DNA of 64,000 nucleotides, taken from NCBI GenBank assembly GCA_041653675.1, contig JBAZEY010000006.1:837-64836 (forward strand), given 5' to 3'. The stretch is from Patescibacteria group bacterium. Its GTDB lineage: Bacteria > Patescibacteriota > Patescibacteriia > XYB2-FULL-38-15. Below are positions 7,113 through 61,690 of the stretch, in pieces (the first letter of the stretch is position 1; each line of letters starts with the position of its first letter). The notes under the pieces were generated by a model, which was not told where the DNA came from, searched no databases, and worked only from the letters and a program-made list of their open reading frames with translations. The translations under genes and the position numbers were made by a program.

Positions 7113-8393
7113 TTATTCTTTTTTAGTTTTAAAATAAGTTTCTAAAATATCTCCCGCAACATATGACATTTTCAACACGTCCTGTTTCGAAACACTTATA
7201 TTGCCGTGAGCATATTTTCCAAGCAGTGCCTCAAACTCAAACCTTTTGTTTAAAAAATCTGAAGTAATACTCAAATAGTTTACAACTTCTTTATCTTTGC
7301 ATTCTTTTTGAAATAATTTAATAAAACTCAAATAGGGATTCTCTTGATTTGCATTATCGGTATCTCCTTGACTTCTGTAATAAATTCTAGAAGCAACATC
7401 CAATATTAACCTCGTAGACATTCCTACAATTAACAAAATATTCTCATCATCCGTTCCTTTTTTATAAACTTTATCAACTGCCAAATACAAATCATTTACT
7501 GGACCCTGTTCTAATTGCAAAACTCTGCCAAAAAGAATATCTTTCTTCTTTGTTGCTGGAGTTTTTTGAGGTTTTATCAATTTTTCAGCTTGTTTTTTAC
7601 TAATTGATATTTCTTCAAAAACACTATTTTCTGGGTTCTTCAGTATTTCATCAATAGATTTATCTTTGTTAATTATTGTTTTTAGTTTTCCTCTGTTATT
7701 TCGAGTAGATATATCACCTTTTTGTAAAGCATCCTGTGTTGCCTCAAAAATTTTAATGAGCTGTCCATCTGAATATTTACTATAAAGTTTGCCTTCCTTC
7801 AGATCTATTCCGATATCTTTAAGATTTTTTTCATTTAAAACCTCTTCTTTCACAAATCTTTTGTTTAAAGTTTTGTTTCCTTTTAAAAAACCCGTTTGAT
7901 CATTAATGGACACAAAAATACTTTTTGGTTTATTTTTAAAATGTAACAAAAAGTAGTCTCTTTCGAGTTCTCCCCACGATCCATTATCAATATGTTTCCT
8001 TTCAATACTCGTAACAGCAGTATTTTCATCACAAACATTACACGGAAGAGTGGTTTGTTCTCTCAATAATTTTGGCTCAAGTTCTCTGAATAACTGCCCC
8101 ACATACTTGGAATACTTACTATCATCTTGTATTATTTTTAGCAAAGCAACTCTTCTGTTTCCATCATAAACTACATACTTATCATCTTTTTTGACGACTA
8201 TGGGTAACTCTGAATAATCGTAATATTCGCCCATTTTTTGTACTAACTTTTTTATATTCCATTTATTATCCGAGTCTTGGATAATACGATCAATGATTTC
8301 TTCATCGATTTTTTTAGCATCAATTGGATCTCTTGGGTTTTCCGTCCAGAGATGTAAATTTTTTATTGGGATGTTTAGAATTTCTTGTTTCAT
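7113..8393 (-). CDS. ParB-like nuclease-domain (ParB-N/sulfiredoxin fold) protein, function unknown
   Basis: N-terminal ...VYDGNRRVALLKI matches the ParB-N GxxR motif. The ~300-aa C-terminal region has no recognisable motif. It is tightly packed between two MTase genes. Confidence 0.6.
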   Translation of the reverse strand: MKQEILNIPIKNLHLWTENPRDPIDAKKIDEEIIDRIIQDSDNKWNIKKLVQKMGEYYDYSELPIVVKKDDKYVVYDGNRRVALLKIIQDDSKYSKYVGQLFRELEPKLLREQTTLPCNVCDENTAVTSIERKHIDNGSWGELERDYFLLHFKNKPKSIFVSINDQTGFLKGNKTLNKRFVKEEVLNEKNLKDIGIDLKEGKLYSKYSDGQLIKIFEATQDALQKGDISTRNNRGKLKTIINKDKSIDEILKNPENSVFEEISISKKQAEKLIKPQKTPATKKKDILFGRVLQLEQGPVNDLYLAVDKVYKKGTDDENILLIVGMSTRLILDVASRIYYRSQGDTDNANQENPYLSFIKLFQKECKDKEVVNYLSITSDFLNKRFEFEALLGKYAHGNISVSKQDVLKMSYVAGDILETYFKTKKE

Positions 8394-35284: not shown

Positions 35285-35349
35285 CCTGAGCCTGTCGAAG
35301 GATAAAATTTAAGTTTCACTGCATCAGTTATGCCTTCGACAAGCTCAGG
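35285..35349. repeat. palindromic repeat family A copy 1 (17-bp inverted arms CCTGAGCyTGTCGAAGG)
   Basis: cctgagcctgtcgaagg-N31-ccttcgacaagctcagg. Related copies are at 46329, 55366 and 60489. Confidence 0.7.
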
Positions 35350-35419
35350 CAATAACTGATTGGTAAATAAATAATTGTTTTAGCAGTTTAGCGCAGATTG
35401 ATTAAAGTGTAAAGTAGCC

Positions 35420-41143: not shown

Positions 41144-41602
41144 TCACGAAGCTACGCGATGCAGTGCCTCCGCAAGAGTTGCGGGACGGTCTTCGCCCTC
41201 CCACTCGTGGATAACGAACTCACGCAGCCACTTGCCTCCGAAGTCGGCCGTATAATCATACGGTCCGCCGCCGAAGCGAGGACCTCGCTTGTATCCAAGG
41301 ATGCGGTCGTAGACCGCCTGTCCTGCCGCCTCCCCCTTCCGGCAAAACTCATCGAACTTCGCTTGATCCGCAGAAACTTGGATCAACGCCGCCTTGTGCT
41401 CATCTTCACCGCGCCCATCCAAGTCGTACCAACAGAGAAGAATGTGCTGACCCGGAGCGACCGTCACCCGGAAGTAACAGTCGCCATGCGACTTCCGCGT
41501 TGGACATTCGACCAGCACCTTCGCCCCGTCGGTTTCCAGACGCCCGTAGTAACCGGAGGGCGAATCGTACTCGGAAAAGTAGAAAGAACAAACCCCAGCC
41601 AT
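41144..41602 (-). CDS. hypothetical protein (152 aa) in GC-rich island b
   Basis: SD AAAGGGAGGG lies before the ATG. GC is high, and no motif is recognised. Confidence 0.5.
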   Translation of the reverse strand: MAGVCSFYFSEYDSPSGYYGRLETDGAKVLVECPTRKSHGDCYFRVTVAPGQHILLCWYDLDGRGEDEHKAALIQVSADQAKFDEFCRKGEAAGQAVYDRILGYKRGPRFGGGPYDYTADFGGKWLREFVIHEWEGEDRPATLAEALHRVAS

Positions 41603-46328: not shown

Positions 46329-46374
46329 CCCTGAGCGAGCGTTAGTGAGTCGAAGGGCCTTCGACAGACTCAGG
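46329..46374. repeat. palindromic repeat family A copy 2, at the left edge of GC island c
   Basis: ccctgagcgagcgttagtgagtcgaaggg / ccttcgacagactcagg. Confidence 0.65.
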
Positions 46375-46464
46375 CCATAAACTTTACCCGCCTTTCTGGC
46401 GGGTTTTTGAAATAAAAAAAGCGAGATCCAGTGATCTCGCAGACTCGTGTTGCCGGAACATGGA

Positions 46465-47094
46465 CTAGCTTGTCCGAGCGGCCTTAGGCGGCGGTTCATG
46501 CGCGTAGCAGTTGGTGCCGCAGAAAGGACACAGTGTAGCTTCTTCGGACGGCTGATCCTTCTGACCCCCGGACCTGGTCTCGTACGCCACGTAGCCGCAC
46601 TCGCAGACCAAGGTGTACTTGTCCAGGAAATCCTGCCCGAGACCGACGTCTTCGGAGTAGCACTCCGCTTCCTCTCCGCACTTCGGACATTTGGGCTTGG
46701 GCTTGGACTTCAACTCCACCTTCTTTTCTTCGGCCATGGTTTCCTCCTTCGTCTGCTCCTCGCAAGGCAAGAGGCCAGCCCGCCCCGCCATCGCAAGGAA
46801 ATTTATCATCTCCTGACAAACAGAACCGCAATATGGTCCAACTCGGCCGTTCTCATCGTAAGCGCCGAGTTCTTCACGAAGACGATGCACATCCTGCTGT
46901 GCGGCGTCCAAGAAGGCCGCCTCTCTCGCCGGCTCCCGCCGCGCCTCGCACATGTACACGTCAAGGCGTGCAATTGAGATGTAAAGGTACAGTGCCACAA
47001 CGGCGTCAATGTTTGGTACCTGGATCGTCTCTCTAACCTTGGTGCCGCAACTTAGAAATGCAGCCGCCAAGGCAACCATGAGGATTTTTTTCAT
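46465..47094 (-). CDS. Cys-rich putative lipoprotein (209 aa) with a Y-C-G-x-V-C-Q-E-M domain, GC island c
   Basis: Signal peptide plus lipobox-like FLSC. SD GAAGGAGG and a TTGACT-N17-TATATA promoter are present. Cys pairs CPKCG/CECG/CPFCG resemble a zinc ribbon. Confidence 0.6.
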   Translation of the reverse strand: MKKILMVALAAAFLSCGTKVRETIQVPNIDAVVALYLYISIARLDVYMCEARREPAREAAFLDAAQQDVHRLREELGAYDENGRVGPYCGSVCQEMINFLAMAGRAGLLPCEEQTKEETMAEEKKVELKSKPKPKCPKCGEEAECYSEDVGLGQDFLDKYTLVCECGYVAYETRSGGQKDQPSEEATLCPFCGTNCYAHEPPPKAARTS

Positions 47095-47110
47095 CTCTTT
47101 CCTCCTTCAA

Positions 47111-47139
47111 TATATAATCACTCTGAACAAAAAAGTCAA
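47111..47139 (-). promoter_or_regulatory. sigma70 promoter TTGACT-N17-TATATA for the 46465..47094 gene
   Basis: Both hexamers match consensus and the SD-ATG lies 20 nt downstream. Confidence 0.5.
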
Positions 47140-47140
47140 G

Positions 47141-47205
47141 AATAAAAAAGGGCTTCTGCGATAAGTATTGCAACGCTTGTGCAACACTAAACCGCAAAAG
47201 CCCAA
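47141..47205 (-). terminator. terminator hairpin (GGGCTTTTGCG...CGCAGAAGCCC + T6) after the 47210..47731 gene
   Basis: Compound hairpin followed by TTTTTTATT on the minus strand. Confidence 0.4.
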
Positions 47206-47209
47206 CGAC

Positions 47210-47731
47210 TCACGGCCCGCAAAAGAGGCCGTTTGCCCTCGCCTCCAAAAGAAACTTCGTCATCTCCTGGCAGACCGGACCGCAGTAGCAATCGGTCCGG
47301 CCGCGTGCGCGGTAGACGTCGAATTCCTGGCCCAGGCGGTCCACATCGCGCTCGGCGAAGTTACGAATCGCCTGACGGGCGCTCTCCTCCGCCATCGCCG
47401 CCTCGCAGATGCCGACTTCCATACGCTGAGTTTCCAGACTGAGATACTGCCCATGTGTTCCGCCGAGCGTCGGCTCGCAGGCGACTACCTCGACCGTGAC
47501 CGGATCGGTCGGCTCTGGCAGACTTCCTCCGCAGCCGACCAAAATGAGCAGAAGAATCCCGGCCAACGTGCTGGATCCGCCGCCGAAGGCCCAAGCATGT
47601 TCGCTCGGGTCCCAAACGCGCCACGGAACCTTGAGGTAATCGTTGTCGTTCAACAGCCCGCCGATCACCGCCGCGCCGCAGAGCAAAAAGAGAATTCCCA
47701 AGAAAACCGCCGTACTTCCACAGGATTCCAT
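47210..47731 (-). CDS. Cys-rich membrane-anchored/secreted protein, paralogue of 46465..47094 (shares the ~70-aa CEA...YCGxVCQEM...GL.C domain)
   Basis: Start reassigned to MESCGST, which is preceded by SD GAAGGAGGAGG. The conserved block ...VDRLGQEFDVYRARGRTDCYCGPVCQEMTKFLLEA... aligns with ...VHRLREELGAYDENGRVGPYCGSVCQEMINFLAMA... Confidence 0.6.
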   Translation of the reverse strand: MESCGSTAVFLGILFLLCGAAVIGGLLNDNDYLKVPWRVWDPSEHAWAFGGGSSTLAGILLLILVGCGGSLPEPTDPVTVEVVACEPTLGGTHGQYLSLETQRMEVGICEAAMAEESARQAIRNFAERDVDRLGQEFDVYRARGRTDCYCGPVCQEMTKFLLEARANGLFCGP

Positions 47732-47858
47732 TGTCCTCCTCCTTCTTGCCTCAATCGCCAATTTTAGGCGAATATAAAATTATCCAACATTTTTTGCTTT
47801 TTGTCAAGATTGATGATAAAATGAAACTACTTTTAAAAATATTTTAATTTAAAAACCC

Positions 47859-55292: not shown

Positions 55293-55365
55293 ATTTTTAA
55301 AATTAGTATATTTTCTTCTCTTTATAATACCGCAAATTTTTTCTGGTGGCAAGCTAAAATAAAAA

Positions 55366-55452
55366 CCCTGGAGTGAGTGAATAGTCCTCGGATGTCCAGA
55401 CAAATAGAGAGAGATTTATTTGCTGAACGAAGATTATTCACTCGCTTCAGGG
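55366..55452. repeat. 18-bp inverted repeat (CCCTGrAGyGAGTGAATA) related to family A, at the left edge of GC island d
   Basis: ccctggagtgagtgaata-N51-tattcactcgcttcaggg. Confidence 0.55.
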
Positions 55453-55659
55453 TTCAAACATTTTTTGAGACCGCCACTTTTGTGATGTTCTCGAAAAATG
55501 TGGGGAACGAATGATGTGTAGTCACTCGTTCCCCGTGTGTTCGGTTTGTCTAGGCCGAAACCTGAGGGCTACTGCCTCCCTTGGACTCACCACTACGCAG
55601 GTGACGCGTTCCATCGCGGGCGGCGAGCGTTGACCTTGCGGTCAAGCGATAGCGGCTAT

Positions 55660-55839
55660 CTATCTCACGCCTACCTCCTCCTCTTCACCGAGCAGGAACT
55701 GGACGAACCGGTCCAGCTGCGGTTCATACCGCTGCATGAATCGGACCGTCGCCCGCGGTGCGATCCGGTCGGCGATTCTGACCACGATGACCGCGGAGAC
55801 AAGAATCGCCGTGCTGGCGACCTCCCGTACCACCTTCAC
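55660..55839 (-). CDS. small hydrophobic protein (59 aa, GTG start) in GC island d
   Basis: SD GAAGGGAGGAAG lies 4 nt before the GTG. The sequence has one TM-like segment (STAILVSAVIVV). Confidence 0.35.
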   Translation of the reverse strand: MKVVREVASTAILVSAVIVVRIADRIAPRATVRFMQRYEPQLDRFVQFLLGEEEEVGVR

Positions 55840-56077
55840 AATCTTCCTCCCTTCTAGCCGCCAAGGACCAGCAAAGAGGCGACAAAAGCGAAGAACAAAC
55901 CGAGCCAGAACACGTGGCCTTCTCCGGCTCCCTCCATCTCGCCGACCACCATAAGCCGGCGACGCTCGAACTTTTTGACTCCTTTCATGATGACGTAGAC
56001 GTCCGCGCCTACCACCAAAATTCCCAGAATCACCCTGGCCGTGGACAAATTTTCTTGCCTCCTCTTGGTCGGATGAA

Positions 56078-56227
56078 CTAGGAGCAATCCTCGCCGTCGT
56101 CGCCGTCGCAGGCGTCGACCACATCATCGCATCCCGCGTCCGCCTCGCACGGCGGAGAGAGATCGATGAACGTGTTGCTGCAACCGAGCGCGAACATCAC
56201 GAACAGCACCATGAACATCTTTTTCAT
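56078..56227 (-). CDS. truncated paralogue (49 aa) of the Cys/Asp-rich lipoproteins
   Basis: MKKMFMVLFVMFALGCSNTFIDLSPPCEADAGCDD... has the same signal, lipobox and first Cys-motif as the two large paralogues. It is preceded by the third copy of the leader repeat. Confidence 0.4.
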   Translation of the reverse strand: MKKMFMVLFVMFALGCSNTFIDLSPPCEADAGCDDVVDACDGDDGEDCS

Positions 56228-56371
56228 CTCGTTTCTTTCCCTTCTTTTGCCTCCGCCAAAGGCGGAAAAATTTATGAAATGAACTTTCCTCTCTTCGAGT
56301 TCACCTGTTTACTGTTCGAGCGGAGCGTTAGCGAAGTCGAGAACTTCTCGACTCACTTCGTTCGCTCGAAG

Positions 56372-56545
56372 AATAACAGATGCCCTCGAAAGAAGGCGGA
56401 ACACATTTTTTAGGTGGGTTCCGCTAAGCTCGTATTTTTTCTTGCTGTCACCTTGCGGTGATTTAGGAAAATTTACGAGCCACCGTCCGAAGGACTCGGA
56501 CGATTTCCGGCATACTTTTGGAAGCCGGCTTATTTTGGAAGGTGC
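56372..56545 (-). repeat. leader repeat copy 3 (distal ~175 bp, near-identical)
   Basis: Matches 57727-57900 and 59469-59640 almost base for base. Confidence 0.85.
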
Positions 56546-56547
56546 TA

Positions 56548-57627
56548 CTACGGGCAGTCCTCGTCGACCAGTCCGTCGCAGTTGTCGTCGAGGCCGTTGC
56601 CACACGTGTCGATGGAACCCGGAATGGACCAGATGGTTCCGGGTGGCGACGAATCGCAGGCCAGCTGGAACATCTCACCAGGCGCGTTGCAGGTGATGAC
56701 GCCGAACTCGGTGCAAAGACCTTCGTCGGAGAAGATGACGCAGGTACGACCGAGATCCTCTCGGTAGTCCTCGTCCGTTTCCCCATCGCAGTCGTTGTCG
56801 ATCTCGTCGCAGAGTTCCTGGGCGTCCGGATTGATAGCCGCGTCGCTATCGTCGCAGTCTTCCGCATTGGTAACGTACCCAGGAGGCATATCCTCGGTTG
56901 GACAGTGTGACGAGGTAGCGGTGGGGGTGTCGAATCCGAAGCCGTCGCCGTCTCGATCAAAGTAGATCGGAAAGCGATCGATGGCATCCGCGTCCGTCTC
57001 GCCGTCGCAGTCGTTGTCGAGGCCGTCGCAGATCTCGCCAACGCCGGGATGGACAGCCGGATTGTGATCGTCGCAGTCGTAGTACTCACCCGGCGAAGAA
57101 CCACAGAGCTGATGACCATCGACGTCATCATCACGTCCGACAAGCAAACAGTGATTCATCACACAACGGGAGATGATGCACTCACTGTCGCGAAAACCGC
57201 AGTCATCGGAAGTGACACACTCTGGCGGCGCGCAGGCGGGATCATCGGACGGAACGTGGCGACAGATGCCGCCAACCTCGCAGAGGTCGACCGTGCAGTC
57301 GTCGCCGTCGTCGCAGTCCGCACTCGTCTCACATTCGGTAGTCGGGAGACACACGCACATGTCGCCGGAACAAACGCCGGTTGACATGCCTTCTGCCTGG
57401 CACTCGAAAACGCAATCGGTCGGCACGCAGTCGGACGGCGGCTCGCAGGCCGGATTGTCGGAGGGAACCATGACGCAGGTGCGGTCAATGCCGCAGATGT
57501 CCACCGTGCAGGGGTCGCCGTCGGCGCAGTCCGCGTCCGAAACGCACTCCTGACTCAGATCGAGGAACGTGTTGTTGCAACCGATCGCGAACAGAACCAC
57601 GGACAGAACCATCAACGTATTCTTCAT
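56548..57627 (-). CDS. secreted Cys/Asp-rich lipoprotein with MopE/TSP3-like DxDxDGxxDC metal(Ca)-binding repeats
   Basis: Start reassigned to MKNTLMVLSVVLFAIGC (SD AAGGAAGGAAAG). It has repeats CDGLDNDCDGETD, CDEIDNDCDGETDED, CGNGLDDNCDGLVDEDC and ~14% Cys. The ORF-track N-terminus (MFRLLSRV...) is the upstream leader read in frame. Confidence 0.65.
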   Translation of the reverse strand: MKNTLMVLSVVLFAIGCNNTFLDLSQECVSDADCADGDPCTVDICGIDRTCVMVPSDNPACEPPSDCVPTDCVFECQAEGMSTGVCSGDMCVCLPTTECETSADCDDGDDCTVDLCEVGGICRHVPSDDPACAPPECVTSDDCGFRDSECIISRCVMNHCLLVGRDDDVDGHQLCGSSPGEYYDCDDHNPAVHPGVGEICDGLDNDCDGETDADAIDRFPIYFDRDGDGFGFDTPTATSSHCPTEDMPPGYVTNAEDCDDSDAAINPDAQELCDEIDNDCDGETDEDYREDLGRTCVIFSDEGLCTEFGVITCNAPGEMFQLACDSSPPGTIWSIPGSIDTCGNGLDDNCDGLVDEDCP

Positions 57628-57900
57628 CTTCTTCTCTCTTTCCTTCCTTGTTGTAAAGAACTTTGTCCCGGACACGCGAAACATCGCGGCCGAGAAACTT
57701 TCCTCTCTTCGAATTTGCCACGCAACGCGTGGTACCCTCGAAAGAAGGCGGAACACATTTTTTAGGTGGGTTCCGCTAAGCTCGTATTTTTTCTTGCTGT
57801 CACCTTGCGGTGATTTAGGAAAATTTACGAGCCACCGTCCGAAGGACTCGGACGATTTCCGGCATACTTTTGGAAGCCGGCTTGTTTTTGGAAGGAACTA
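57565..57900 (-). repeat. leader repeat copy 1 (~335 bp, identical to 59307..59640), comprising the first codons plus 5' UTR/promoter
   Basis: An exact duplicate covering the signal-peptide codons, SD and ~270 bp upstream with several hairpins (TCACC-GCAA-GGTGA, CCACGC-GTT-GCGTGG, TCCGA-GTCCT-TCGGA). Confidence 0.85.
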
Positions 57901-59370
57901 CTCGGCGATCACGAGCTTCGTGGAGGCGATCATGGGGAGACCCGACAGGAAACAGATCTCATGGCCGACGTCAATGTCGTCCGCGCTCATGATCCCGAAC
58001 TGGAAGATCTCTCCCAATTCGGGATGGTCGGCTCCGAACCCGCTCAGAGAAAGCTCGACGTACGAGATTTCGACTTCCGGCGGCACCGCGATGTTTTCGA
58101 AGACAATCTGATCGCCGGGACTCCCTTCTCCACTGGGTACGATCTTCTCCTTCCGGATCGAAACCCATTCGCCCGAGAACGGAACCCTCCCATGCAGTGT
58201 CAGCCACGCATCCAAGCTGGCATCACCCTGGAGAACCGTGAAGGCAATCCGAGGGATCACGCCTGTTTCAATCTGAACCATGAAGGCGAACTTCGCCACC
58301 GAAACCTCGTAAGTGCTGCTGTCCATCGGTGCGCACCAAGTGTCCTCGGCACACTCGCTCGGTACCACCTGTCCGTACGTAACCCAGTTGACCCACGGAA
58401 ACACGGGCGGACCACTGATGAAGAGCGAGCTGCAGAAATCCGCGGGGTAACGTGGTTCAGTGACGGTTGAAGAACAGGAATGGAAAGGATGGCTGGTGCA
58501 CGCGGGAGCTGGTGGGCAAACGGAATCTTCGTCCGTCTCGCCGTCGCAGTCGTCGTCCGCGCTGTTGCAGACCTCGGTAGTCGGGATGCAGGCAGGCCCA
58601 CAGTCCTCGTCGACCGCCGTGTCGCAATTGTCATCTCGACCGTTGCCGCAGACCTCGTCGGCGCCGGGATGAACATCCGGATCGTGATCGTCGCAATCGT
58701 AGCGTTCGCCTTCCGGCAGACCGCCGCAGAGCGACCGACCGTCGCCATCGTCATCACGTTCGAAAGCGAAGCACGAATTCGCCAAGCAGCGGAAGACGAG
58801 ACACTCGCCGTCGAAGCGAGCGCAATCGGCATCCGTGCGGCACTCGGGTGGTGTCTCACAGGCCGGATGACCGGCGCAACCAGAGTCGGCACAGTCGGCA
58901 CGACCGTCGCGATCGTTGTCTGCGCCATCCGTACACTCGCCGGGCTCGTCACCCTCGTAGTCGTCGACTTCCACATCCGCATCAGCGTCCGCATCGGCAT
59001 CGACGTCCGCGTCAGCATCCGAAGGCGTCTCGCAGGCCGGATGACCGGCGCAACCAGAGTCGGCGCAGTCGAACTGACCGTCACGGTCATTGTCCACGCC
59101 ATCCGTGCATTCTCCGGGCTCGTCGCCCTCGTAGTCGTCGGTACTTGCATCCGCGTCGGCGTCAGCATCGGCATCCCGGTCGTCCACCGGCTCGCAAGCC
59201 GGGTTGTCGGAGGGAACCATGACGCAGGTGCGGTCAATGCCGCAGATGTCCACCGTGCAGGGGTCGCCGTCGGCGCAATCCGTGTCCGACTGGCACTCGC
59301 TGTCGAGGAACGTGTTGTTGCAACCGATCGCGAACAGAACCACGGACAGAACCATCAACGTATTCTTCAT
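57898..59370 (-). CDS. secreted Cys/Asp-rich lipoprotein paralogue (~490 aa) with duplicated GECTDGxDNDRDGxxDCADSGCAGHPACETP modules and a C-terminal ~170-aa beta-rich domain
   Basis: Same signal, lipobox and first 25 residues as 56548..57627. It has poly-(DA) linkers, an internal exact module duplication and SD AAGGAAGGAAAG. Confidence 0.65.
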   Translation of the reverse strand: MKNTLMVLSVVLFAIGCNNTFLDSECQSDTDCADGDPCTVDICGIDRTCVMVPSDNPACEPVDDRDADADADADASTDDYEGDEPGECTDGVDNDRDGQFDCADSGCAGHPACETPSDADADVDADADADADVEVDDYEGDEPGECTDGADNDRDGRADCADSGCAGHPACETPPECRTDADCARFDGECLVFRCLANSCFAFERDDDGDGRSLCGGLPEGERYDCDDHDPDVHPGADEVCGNGRDDNCDTAVDEDCGPACIPTTEVCNSADDDCDGETDEDSVCPPAPACTSHPFHSCSSTVTEPRYPADFCSSLFISGPPVFPWVNWVTYGQVVPSECAEDTWCAPMDSSTYEVSVAKFAFMVQIETGVIPRIAFTVLQGDASLDAWLTLHGRVPFSGEWVSIRKEKIVPSGEGSPGDQIVFENIAVPPEVEISYVELSLSGFGADHPELGEIFQFGIMSADDIDVGHEICFLSGLPMIASTKLVIAE

Positions 59371-59640
59371 CTTCTTCTCTCTTTCCTTCCTTGTTGTAAA
59401 GAACTTTGTCCCGGACACGCGAAACATCGCGGCCGAGAAACTTTCCTCTCTTCGAATTTGCCACGCAACGCGTGGTACCCTCGAAAGAAGGCGGAACACA
59501 TTTTTTAGGTGGGTTCCGCTAAGCTCGTATTTTTTCTTGCTGTCACCTTGCGGTGATTTAGGAAAATTTACGAGCCACCGTCCGAAGGACTCGGACGATT
59601 TCCGGCATACTTTTGGAAGCCGGCTTGTTTTTGGAAGGGA
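59307..59640 (-). repeat. leader repeat copy 2
   Basis: Identical to 57565-57900. Confidence 0.85.
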
Positions 59641-60123
59641 CTAGAGCGTGATGACGCCGTCGTGACCGTACATCATGACCATCGCCATTGCGCCGTTCTT
59701 CATCACGAGGCCTCCGAGGCCTCGCACCAGCTCCCGCGCTTCCCTTCCGGTTGCGTCATCGGGAGTGGTGGTGCAAAGAGCGACATCGTCGTAGGGATAG
59801 CCGAGCTCGTCGCGGAGCCGCTGCCGCGCTTCGTCCTCCGAGGAGGACGAAGCGATGATGTGTCTCGCGGCGACTTCGATCTCGGCGTCGGTCATGTCGG
59901 GGTAGGACTTGCACTGCACCACGGCGGCTCCGACCAAACCGATGAGCTTGGTGTGCTGGGCCGCACGAATCACGGAGTTGGCGAGCGCCAAGGCCTTGCA
60001 AGGGTTGCGTTCACCCACGAAGGACATGGAGGGGTTGTGACCCCTCGAACGCTGCCATGCAGCGTGCGCCACGACCTGCTCGGCAGAGCCTTCGGGCCAG
60101 CCGAGAACACCAGACTTCTGCAT
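59641..60123 (-). CDS. hypothetical protein (160 aa) in GC island d
   Basis: SD GAAGGGAAGGAAGAG lies before the ATG. GC is high, and no motif is recognised with confidence. Confidence 0.5.
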   Translation of the reverse strand: MQKSGVLGWPEGSAEQVVAHAAWQRSRGHNPSMSFVGERNPCKALALANSVIRAAQHTKLIGLVGAAVVQCKSYPDMTDAEIEVAARHIIASSSSEDEARQRLRDELGYPYDDVALCTTTPDDATGREARELVRGLGGLVMKNGAMAMVMMYGHDGVITL

Positions 60124-60488
60124 CTCTTCCTTCCCTTCTTTCGTCCCGCGATTCTGCGGGAAGTCAACGAACTCTTGTTCCCTCTCCGCACCATGCGGTT
60201 TAGGAAATCTTTCGGACAGAAACTTGCGCTTCTGCCCTGGCTTGAATCGGCGAATCTTCGTCGCCTCAAGTCATTTGGACAAACAAAAACGGGCGGAGAG
60301 AATCCGCCCGAAATTAAATTATTTGTACAAATAATTTAGGGTGGTTTTCCCGCCACTTTGGCGAGTCTCTCTCAAACCGACCTATTTCATTGTCAACAAA
60401 TTAGTATACCATAAAAACAACAATCTGTCAAGAGCCTTTGACAGATTTTAGATGATATTTTGGCTAATTTTAGATAAAATATATTATG

Positions 60489-60553
60489 GCCTGAGCTTGT
60501 CGAAGGCCCCTTTTGATAAACCCTTCGACTTCGCGCTACGCGCTCCGCTCAGG
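60489..60553. repeat. palindromic repeat family A copy 3, at the right edge of GC island d
   Basis: gcctgagcttgtcgaagg ... cccttcgacttcgcgctacgcgctccgctcaggg. Confidence 0.65.
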
Positions 60554-60565
60554 GAATAAAATAAA

Positions 60566-61690
60566 CTACTCCCCTATTTTCTGCTCATTTTGATGCCCCT
60601 TCACCAAAACCCCAATCCAGAGTAAACCCAAAACCGCCAAAATTCCAAGAGCAAATAACTTTCCTTCTGATTTTAAAATTAGGGTTGAAGTGCCAAAAGC
60701 CAGGGTGACAAAATACAAAGAAAGCACGGCTTGGCGCTGGGTCATGCCGGCGTCCAAAAGCCTAAAATGTAAATGTTTTTGGTCAGCTAAAACCAGACTT
60801 TTTGGTCTGTTCCAAAGCCGCCGCAAAATAACAATCGCCGCGTCCAAAATCGGCAAACCCATAATCAAAAGTGTGGTCGCTATTTTACCGCCGGCAATAA
60901 TGGACAAAACTCCCAAAATAAAACCGGTAAACAAACTTCCGCCCTCGCCCAAAAAAATCTTCGCCGGATTAAAATTCCAAACCAAAAATCCCGCGCAGGC
61001 ACCGGCAAAAATTATCGAAAGCATCGCTGTCCCCGGCTGGGCGACTTCGGCCATTAAACTGACGAAAAAAATTATCACCGCGCCGATTGTTGAAACTCCA
61101 GAAACCAAACCGTCTAAACCGTCTAAAAATTTTGTCGTGTACATCATTCCCATTAACCAGAGAAATGTGAAAAGGTCGGCGAGGATCGTAATTTTGTAAG
61201 GAATGCCCTGCCACCAAAAAATAATTTTTTGCCAGGAATCAAGGTGCAACAGTCCGCCGAAAGGATTTGTAATTTGGCTGATACCCACACCACTTACAAT
61301 TACGACCGCCGTGGCGAGCACTGGCCAGATAATTTGATATTTTGGCGCCAATTTATATTTATCATCCAAAAATCCGCCGATCATTAAGAGCGCGCCGCCC
61401 AAAAATACGCCGATTAAATTTTTCGCAAAAATTTCCGTGCCCAAAATTTTATCCGTAAAAAAAACGTAATAAGCTAAAACTCCGAAAAAAGATAAAAAAA
61501 TCGCGAAGCCTCCGAGAAGCGGCATTGGCTTTTTATGAATTTTCCTCGGTTCAGTCGGCTCGTCAACAATTTTGTATTTCAAAGCCAACCGACGGACAAG
61601 CCCGGTCAAAAAAACCGCCAACAAAAAAGTGACGATGAAGGAAAAAAAATACATGAGCATTTTAACTTTATAGTTCTCTCGCTTTTTCAA
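60566..61690 (-). CDS. glycosyltransferase family 4 polyprenyl-phosphate HexNAc-1-phosphate transferase (WecA/TagO/MraY family)
   Basis: 10-11 TM with DDxxD-like DDKYKLAP and the FLDGLDGL motif. Confidence 0.75.
   Translation of the reverse strand: MKKRENYKVKMLMYFFSFIVTFLLAVFLTGLVRRLALKYKIVDEPTEPRKIHKKPMPLLGGFAIFLSFFGVLAYYVFFTDKILGTEIFAKNLIGVFLGGALLMIGGFLDDKYKLAPKYQIIWPVLATAVVIVSGVGISQITNPFGGLLHLDSWQKIIFWWQGIPYKITILADLFTFLWLMGMMYTTKFLDGLDGLVSGVSTIGAVIIFFVSLMAEVAQPGTAMLSIIFAGACAGFLVWNFNPAKIFLGEGGSLFTGFILGVLSIIAGGKIATTLLIMGLPILDAAIVILRRLWNRPKSLVLADQKHLHFRLLDAGMTQRQAVLSLYFVTLAFGTSTLILKSEGKLFALGILAVLGLLWIGVLVKGHQNEQKIGE

Follow-up and report, generated by a model that had tools for sequence, protein, structure and literature searches.

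A GC-rich island at a fixed site in Candidatus Falkowbacteria probably encodes hypervariable surface lipoproteins separated by a structured RNA element

Gene content and composition of the island

This report deals with a GC-rich island, island d, in a stretch of 64,000 nucleotides from a Patescibacteria group bacterium (contig JBAZEY010000006.1, positions 837 to 64,836 of the forward strand; hereafter the window, in whose numbering all positions are given), which carries tandem genes for predicted surface lipoproteins and repeated copies of a structured RNA element. An earlier note, made from the letters of the sequence, had described a GC-rich block of about 4.9 kb at this place, and this was borne out: GC content is 55-66% at about 55,495-60,285, compared with 35-45% in the flanks and about 40% in the host. 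The contrast is located mainly at third codon positions, with a third-position GC content (GC3) of 0.72-0.84 for the open reading frames (ORFs) of the island and of 0.35-0.48 for the neighbouring host genes (Glycos_transf_4, ClpC-like, DUF192, L21 and RecR). Instead of the five genes counted earlier, six minus-strand ORFs bear the high-GC3 signature, and we refer to them as P160, LP490, LP359, LP49, sm77 and sm59 (Table 1). AT-rich promoters are found between the GC-rich ORFs. For sm77, a TTG at 56048 is the probable start and a GTG at 56033 the alternative.

Table 1. Genes, protein segments and non-coding features of island d in the numbering of the window
Feature	Position	Strand	Description
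Head promoter	60403-60431	-	TTGACA, 17-nt spacer, TG-n-TATACT; 11/12 match, extended -10
Head RNA	60283-60396	-	about 110 nt; from terminator scan and conservation
P160	59641-60123	-	cytoplasmic-looking protein of 160 aa without assigned function; GC3 0.80
RNA element, copy 3	59480-59643	-	starts with the P160 stop codon TAG; CM R1 190 bits
LP490	57898-59370	-	predicted lipoprotein, 490 aa
LP490 signal peptide and lipobox	59320-59370	-	
LP490 acidic double-disulfide repeats	58850-59001, 59024-59175	-	NF033662
LP490 best-scoring MopE motif	58606-58698	-	PF11617
LP490 orphan C-terminal domain	57901-58524	-	last 208 residues; predicted all-beta
RNA element, copy 2	57737-57900	-	starts with the LP490 stop codon; CM R1 190.9 bits
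LP359	56548-57627	-	predicted lipoprotein, 359 aa; two CTxDxC-type Cys modules and three MopE motifs
RNA element, copy 1	56385-56550	-	starts with the LP359 stop codon; CM R1 191 bits
LP49	56078-56227	-	predicted small Cys/Asp-rich lipoprotein, mature part about 33 aa; GC3 0.84
sm77	55854-56048	-	small two-helix membrane protein; GC3 0.72
sm59	55660-55839	-	small single-helix membrane protein; GC3 0.80
Structured tail	55495-55659	-	GC-rich, non-coding; 13-bp terminator hairpin at 55502-55534

The island also stands out by its translation signals. A strong Shine-Dalgarno site (GAAGG or GGAGG) precedes all nine genes of the GC-rich islets of the window (island d and two further islets at 46.5-47.8 kb and 41.1-41.6 kb), while only 7 of 48 host ORFs have a Shine-Dalgarno sequence before any candidate start.

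Proteins encoded in the island

The N-termini of LP490, LP359 and LP49, judged by inspection, consist of a short basic and hydrophobic signal peptide followed by a lipobox. The pattern [LVI][ASTVI][GAS]C is satisfied by MKNTLMVLSVVLFAIG plus the following cysteine in LP490 and LP359 (ending in AIG-C) and by MKKMFMVLFVMFALG plus cysteine in LP49 (ending in ALG-C), and the proteins of relatives repeat the lipobox pattern and continue with xxTF(I/L)D. For the mature parts, the earlier note had proposed metal-binding repeats of the MopE or thrombospondin type 3 kind. The first half of this proposal was confirmed by searches with hidden Markov models, in which PF11617, the 30-residue motif of Cu-binding_MopE, exceeded its gathering score of 27 bits in both large lipoproteins (LP359: 79.2 bits, E=2.5e-22, three stretches; LP490: 38.7 bits, E=1.2e-9, two stretches) and was also matched by island proteins of three relatives (L008, L010 and L011). 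The second half did not hold for the window, since the thrombospondin type 3 model (PF02412, cut-off 25 bits) matched none of its proteins at E<=0.1, though it did match the island protein of a relative, L009, at 27.5 bits. The acidic double-disulfide repeat NF033662 (curated cut-off 41 bits) was recognized in the duplicated module of LP490 (58.7 bits, E=3.3e-16, two stretches) and not in LP359. The two units of this duplication are 84% identical as DNA and agree in 36 of 39 residues as protein, so that the duplication is not exact, as had been stated, and linkers of poly-(Asp-Ala), ascribed to both large lipoproteins, occur in LP490 but not in LP359. From the DxDxDG-like sequence pattern, LP359 and LP490 may bind calcium or other metals, and the motifs likewise suggest that the lipoproteins are exposed on the surface. 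The copper site of MopE lies outside the PF11617 motif, so no role in copper binding can be derived from the matches.

A search of 1.84 billion representative proteins gave no relative of the C-terminal 208 residues of LP490 apart from a fragment of LP490 itself. A single-sequence AlphaFold2 model of the protein is of low confidence (mean predicted local distance difference test, pLDDT, 44) and unusable for a fold search; its beta strands at residues 359-459 suggest an all-beta domain. In P160 the situation is reversed with respect to the model, which is confident (pLDDT 94.7) and has no relative in the PDB. P160 has 74 homologues with 44-80% identity, and every one of them with a named source is from Patescibacteria; the identical NCBI entry is a hypothetical protein of Patescibacteria, and no match was obtained in Pfam, NCBIfam, PADLOC or PHROG. 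In other genomes, too, genes of this family of about 160 aa are locally GC-richer than their surroundings, and in L105 the gene lies near IS110 transposases. None of the island proteins matched the defence (PADLOC) or phage (PHROG) libraries.

The three small genes are conserved. LP49 had been taken for a truncated paralogue of the large lipoproteins; it is rather a conserved small lipoprotein gene with orthologues of 65 aa in two relatives (L007 and L098), the mature sequence being the same so far as visible. Counterparts of sm77 occur in eight loci (47-93% amino acid identity; L006, L007, L009, L011, L088, L089, L091 and L100) and of sm59 in seven (53-78%; L006, L007, L009, L011, L088, L089 and L093).

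A shared leader that is mostly an intercistronic RNA element

LP490 and LP359 had been described as tandem paralogues with an identical leader and signal peptide, and this is correct. The longest exact repeat comprises 336 nt on the minus strand (57560-57895 and 59303-59638), covers the leader and codons 1-23 (MKNTLMVLSVVLFAIGCNNTFLD) of both genes and is embedded in a stretch of 483 nt with 95% identity. The claim that the first Cys motif is identical as well applies to the protein, from DCADGDPC to PACEP; at the DNA level, identity falls to about 91% over a 120-nt window. Similarly, a third copy of the leader does precede LP49 (56383-56549) but comprises just the first ~165 nt, at 98-99% identity. 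All tblastn matches of LP490 and LP359 within the window fall inside the island, and no homologous cassette lies elsewhere in it.

The earlier note had overlooked that most of this leader is a structured RNA between cistrons, the start of which coincides with the stop codon of the upstream gene. Its first ~160 nt form a conserved element of four stems that recurs between the island genes of relatives. The complete leader of 275 nt folds with -105 kcal/mol, compared with -72 ± 5 for shuffled sequences (z = -6.7), and full-length copies of the element, each folded alone, all yield the architecture P1, P2, P3 and P4. P3 is a three-tier hairpin with a GNRA loop (GCAA, GUAA or GCGA) in most copies. 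P4 is an invariant 7-bp stem, GCGGAAC…GUUCCGC, followed by C(C/U)UYUUYCGAG; it does not vary across copies, while every other stem does. A covariance model (CM R1) was built from six copies, and a search with it retrieved 35 copies in 21 loci. Since RNAalifold underestimates the structure on plain MAFFT alignments, in which the stems are out of register, the covariance-model alignment was used. In this alignment of 35 copies, 95.8% of the cells are paired as opposed to 78.6% in shuffles, double changes are present in 29 of the 39 base pairs, and the covariation score is 0.408 compared with 0.146 for shuffled alignments (reached in none of 500) and 0.04-0.08 for slid partners. On the reverse strand the element scores about 20 bits, on the sense strand about 190; these weak reverse-strand scores and the frequent G-U pairs together assign the structure to the sense strand and thereby point to an RNA. 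The element found no match in Rfam 15, where a search of 55300-60600 at E<=5 returned chance-level matches only and where two tRNAs alone reached a gathering score in the window. It is absent from IMG/VR and from the rest of the window. The element is a previously undescribed structured RNA, kept by compensatory changes, that has no Rfam family.

The position of the element relative to genes is just as regular. All 26 copies with an identifiable 5' end begin with TAG, and a long, GC3-rich upstream ORF terminates in frame at this TAG in 29 of 33 copies. The downstream gene starts 47-340 nt further on and encodes a lipoprotein or a membrane protein wherever one was found (30 of 33 copies). The 14 matches in metagenomes are without exception located in GC-rich stretches, and wherever the sequence extends into a flanking gene, the locus is this one. 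Most likely, P4 and its pyrimidine tail work as a terminator or a processing site and so determine the read-through into the following gene, an assignment in which we have far less confidence than in the overall picture of the island developed below. P4 was not reported by the terminator scan, whose limit is a loop of 3-8 nt that P4 mostly exceeds.

An ORF followed by a folded repeat that starts at its stop codon, an invariant GCGGAAC...GTTCCGC hairpin and arrays of one to three copies are also what would be expected of an integron-like cassette array that has no integrase, with the element, or the AAC...GTT hairpin of P4, serving as the site of site-specific recombination. The likeness to the attC sites of integron cassettes and of integrase-less attC clusters is evident, as there the folded repeat overlaps the stop codon of each ORF and array length is variable. 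The element differs, however, in having four separate stems rather than one long imperfect hairpin and in being conserved in sequence and not in structure alone, and its G-U pairs and GNRA loops point to RNA of the sense strand. No integrase was found among the ORFs and Pfam matches of the island in the window or in the fetched loci, and the sole recombination breakpoint observed (see below) lies in the signal-peptide region and not in P4. We therefore consider an integron-like array very improbable.

Head promoter, head RNA and tail

The array of six genes is preceded by an AT-rich promoter that occurs once in the window and whose two hexamers are nearly invariant across 14 related loci. It is followed by a head RNA, in which a conserved closing helix P1, GGU(C)GGUUU/AAACCACC, encloses the invariant GAGAGAGAC and a variable hairpin represented by at least six different complementary stems among relatives. 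Next come a perfect palindrome rich in A and U (60315-60338) and a strong intrinsic terminator (60290-60310) with a T run. The head RNA is 68-100% conserved in all island-bearing loci and has no match in Rfam. It may be either the gene of a small RNA or an attenuator of the array. At the other end, the array closes with a structured tail (minimum free energy z = -4.1) that includes a GCAA-capped hairpin and is 79-85% conserved in four relatives (L004, L007, L097 and L102).

Two further structures were noticed. At the low-GC border of the island, just upstream of DUF192, lies a 27-nt inverted repeat (85% complementary) with a T run after it (55364-55454 of the window); it resembles a large terminator hairpin. 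In three relatives, the leader of the first gene contains a tRNA-like piece (L087, 6430-6475; L088, 7393-7477; L099, 2327-2371) that resembles both ends of the tmRNA model with sub-threshold scores (24-26 bits, E ~1e-6) and is not called by ARAGORN; this piece is not in the window.

A fixed site with variable content

Metagenome-assembled genomes of Candidatus Falkowbacteria contain the closest relatives of the Glycos_transf_4 gene that flanks the island. In about 20 related assemblies, the site of the island is fixed between this MraY/WecA-like gene and DUF192, and the gene content differs in each (L004, L006-L011 and L087-L102 have the same site with other content). Where the Glycos_transf_4 protein of a relative is 74-91% identical, the stretch between the two genes is GC-rich in every case and measures 1.5-5.3 kb. 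The number of lipoprotein genes per locus ranges from no full-length gene in L007, which has the LP49 orthologue only, to three in L098, the truncated copy counted, and the islands of relatives hold other membrane proteins too. L012, with 64% identity in Glycos_transf_4, has no island and only a low-GC spacer of 0.75 kb. Head and tail non-coding regions are present in most of the related loci, and sm77, sm59, head and tail are all GC-rich there. This recurrence of GC-rich small genes and ends speaks against insertion in recent times: the island is an old feature of the Falkowbacteria clade, conserved in position, which the earlier note had likewise overlooked. With different genes of atypical composition at the same site among relatives, it has the properties of a replacement flexible genomic island.

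In the light of these comparisons, the recent acquisition of the island from a GC-rich donor such as a member of the Myxococcota, as passive foreign DNA with repeats left over from a family of the donor, appears unlikely. It would account for the gap in GC3 and for strong Shine-Dalgarno sites at island genes where host genes mostly have none, and distant repeat-level homologues do exist in Sandaracinus, Myxococcota and 'Deltaproteobacteria'. These matches, however, comprise short repeats only, with 30-55% identity, the promoters are AT-rich and host-like, and the island with head RNA, element and sm77/sm59 sits at the same site, GC-rich, in species as far apart as the identities of the flanking protein given above. 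All these objections concern a recent event; an acquisition in the distant past may have taken place.

Equally, the island could be thought to stem from an assembly chimera or a collapsed repeat. The junction between host and island is 99.4-100% identical in three other assemblies (L001-L003: JGI 3300014205, ENA ERZ27247358 and Logan SRR6484325), the short-read contigs of which, from the same strain, all end inside the first repeat copy, and neither LP490 nor LP359 is present in the protein collection as a full-length entry. A repeat of this kind is expected to break short-read assembly, which explains the contig ends, and the junction reproduced in three assemblies shows that the island is not a chimera. 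As both junctions and the architecture moreover recur in ~20 independent assemblies of relatives, an assembly artefact is extremely improbable.

Several candidates for a mobile or phage-derived origin were tried and rejected. Direct repeats at the borders (D13; 55471-55497 and 60350-60376, 74% identical) do not qualify as att sites, because one copy is part of the head RNA, in its variable hairpin, and this hairpin is different in every relative. No tRNA or tmRNA that could have served as an integration target is near the island. For a phage origin, there was no PHROG match, and IMG/VR contained neither the element nor P160 and only two repeat-level matches (33-36%) to LP359.

Some relatives have additional genes around the site. 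A low-GC DUF559 gene (Vsr-like endonuclease fold) lies between Glycos_transf_4 and the island head in five of them (L006, 9194-9625; L007; L008; L011; L088) and is absent from the window and from L004. In L006, a 23S_rRNA_IVP or bAvd-like four-helix-bundle gene (7602-7979) lies between ClpC and Glycos_transf_4, with no reverse transcriptase seen nearby.

Two further GC-rich islets (GC3 0.65-0.73 over both) lie between housekeeping genes of the window, and neither yielded a match in Pfam, NCBIfam or PHROG. The first (46465-47767) encodes two paralogues with a common CG(S/P)VCQEM motif, one a predicted lipoprotein (MKKILMVALAAAFLSCG...) and the other membrane-anchored; it is missing at the same site in L006, and L004 has a GIY-YIG gene instead. 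The second (41144-41602) consists of an ORF of 152 aa. A sequence of 24-26 nt (GGCCTTCGACAAGCTCAGGCC...) occurs three times in the window with 92-96% identity (60484-60509, 46355-46380 and 35332-35355), and two of the three copies adjoin GC-rich islets.

Recombination and mosaicism among relatives

The earlier note had suspected a recombining gene family, and the relatives provide clear support for this, since the same modules appear in them in other orders and combinations. Four proteins (P0001, P0003, P0004 and P0011) combine stretches nearly identical to LP359 with stretches nearly identical to LP490, and in L102 two LP359-like segments are present in opposite order. When the island is painted in segments of 50 nt, the best-matching locus changes from segment to segment. 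The most instructive case is L101, from a sample that also contains contig L002 (99.4% identical). From about position 57,460 down to 56,391, that is, over the body of LP359 and the element that follows, L101 and the window are 100% identical; the two preceding 50-nt bins have 48-49 matches of 50, and upstream of about 57,560 the sequences diverge sharply, L101 having another upstream gene, RNA-element variant, leader and signal peptide. The 336-nt exact tract of the window ends at this breakpoint, and it follows that either LP490 was the source of a sequence that replaced the LP359 leader in the window or LP490 itself arrived by recombination within the tract. A single fixed structure of the locus is contradicted by this comparison of assemblies, and all of the variation seen is variation between assemblies.

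A different question is whether recombination serves programmed antigenic or phase variation, in which one expression site is fed by silent or partial cassettes via identical leaders, as the earlier note had surmised. Comparable in layout are the variable lipoprotein families of Mycoplasma, vsp of M. bovis, vlp of M. hyorhinis and vsa of M. pulmonis, which, like island d, are made up of tandem lipoprotein genes with nearly identical 5' leaders and signal peptides and divergent, internally repetitive mature parts. These families switch by site-specific inversion or homopolymer slippage. Two tandem genes with an identical leader of 336 nt, a partial third copy, alleles with swapped leaders and the mosaic nature of the family are in line with programmed switching in island d. 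The island, however, has neither a recombinase nor a slippery tract, and its repeats are Cys/Asp-rich disulfide modules. No invertase, invertible promoter or silent cassette was found in it; between 55 and 61 kb there are just three pairs of inverted repeats, none of which flanks a leader. Every gene has its own ribosome-binding site and an intact ORF, LP49 is a conserved gene and not a silent cassette, the window has no further cassettes, and the variation observed is, as stated, all between assemblies. Programmed switching is therefore quite unlikely to be at work here. As for a diversity-generating retroelement, the ORF list of the island contains no reverse transcriptase and the repeat list no template/variable pair, although no dedicated search was made.

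Interpretation and comparison with known systems

Taken together, the locus is probably a replacement-type, hypervariable surface-lipoprotein island at a fixed site of the Falkowbacteria clade that is diversified by recombination and whose genes are separated by structured RNA. It forms one array on the same strand, in which the AT-rich promoter is followed by the head RNA and its terminator, by the variable GC-rich genes and, finally, by the structured tail with another terminator, and we assume that its transcription starts at the head promoter. P4 with its pyrimidine tail would act as a leaky terminator or as a processing or stability site, and the extent of read-through would set the expression of the later cassettes. 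The lipoproteins follow a common plan in which signal peptide and lipobox are succeeded by a disulfide- and Asp-rich stalk, composed of CTxDxC modules, acidic double-disulfide repeats and MopE motifs with DxDxDG loops, and by a lineage-specific C-terminal domain. Stalks of this kind, presumably stabilized by Ca2+ and disulfides, would present variable binding domains on the cell surface. As envelope-anchored binding proteins, the lipoproteins may be under diversifying selection, possibly driven by encounters with partners or phages. Diversity would arise by ordinary homologous recombination and gene conversion, with exchange both among tandem paralogues and among strains, for which the repeated sequences (RNA element, leader, signal-peptide region and modules) would provide the substrates.

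Several points weigh against this interpretation. The proteins are predicted to be lipoproteins from their lipobox. The alignment of the element is fitted to the covariance model, so that the pair counts are somewhat inflated; the single-sequence folds, which are independent of the fitted alignment, agree with the structure of the model. With a loop of 5-15 nt and a moderate U tract, P4 is no textbook terminator. Recombination is deduced from the comparison of assemblies and not from reads, and short reads cannot verify, across the exact repeat of 336 nt, which of LP490 and LP359 comes first in the window. Finally, the model does not account for high GC3 and strong Shine-Dalgarno sites that persist in a low-GC genome poor in Shine-Dalgarno sequences. 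Foreign-looking composition and translation signals may have been kept across species because the genes were imported repeatedly, because gene conversion is biased at a recombination hot spot, or through selection.

As to protein architecture, the closest parallels are the proteins with PF11617 and NF033662 motifs that are abundant in Myxococcota. The motifs are the same, above curated cut-offs, and many of these proteins are lipoproteins with variable C-terminal domains, as here. The differences are that the host in the present case is a Patescibacterium and that the C-terminal domain of LP490 is an orphan.

With regard to the organization of the locus, replacement-type flexible islands for surface structures are established, and include O-antigen and capsule loci and the cell-wall island of Haloquadratum walsbyi (PMC4535781). 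They resemble island d in their fixed site between conserved genes, strain-specific content, atypical composition, envelope-related products and the breaks they cause in metagenome assemblies. Island d differs in that it is GC-rich in a low-GC genome and spans 1.5-5.3 kb only, that it encodes modular lipoproteins instead of glycosylation enzymes and that it is punctuated by a structured RNA. A case from within the candidate phyla radiation (CPR) is the hypervariable surface-protein gene of a Gracilibacterium, which encodes an extracellular protein, breaks assemblies and has been read as related to attachment (PMC6851277). Local hypervariability of an assembly-breaking gene for an extracellular protein in a CPR bacterium is common to both; in Gracilibacterium, the variable part is a short tandem peptide repeat in one gene, whereas island d is an island of several gene cassettes. 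What is known here, then, is the type of flexible surface-protein island; the new component is the covarying RNA motif that is not in Rfam.

Going beyond this, head RNA and the ~160-nt element could together constitute an undescribed RNA control system of a hypervariable surface-protein operon in CPR bacteria. P4 would then be a terminator or processing site whose read-through or cleavage, regulated by a factor or a ligand, sets the number of cassettes expressed, the repeats would double as DNA homology for the swapping of cassettes, and the islets, rich in GC and in Shine-Dalgarno sites, would represent a separate, long-lived gene pool kept distinct from the rest of the genome by recombination-linked biased gene conversion or constant exchange. 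We put this forward as a tentative possibility that is more probably wrong than right.

Bacteria of the CPR or Patescibacteria are thought to live attached to other cells. To our knowledge, their attachment proteins are almost unknown. The locus described here would provide a concrete, comparably placed candidate for such proteins, which differs in every relative and bears direct traces of recombination. A new covarying RNA that is tied to one type of operon would open a practicable way to study gene regulation in an uncultured phylum. Island and core, moreover, differ in GC3 and ribosome-binding sites across species, which would make the locus a sharp test case for the upkeep of compositional islands.

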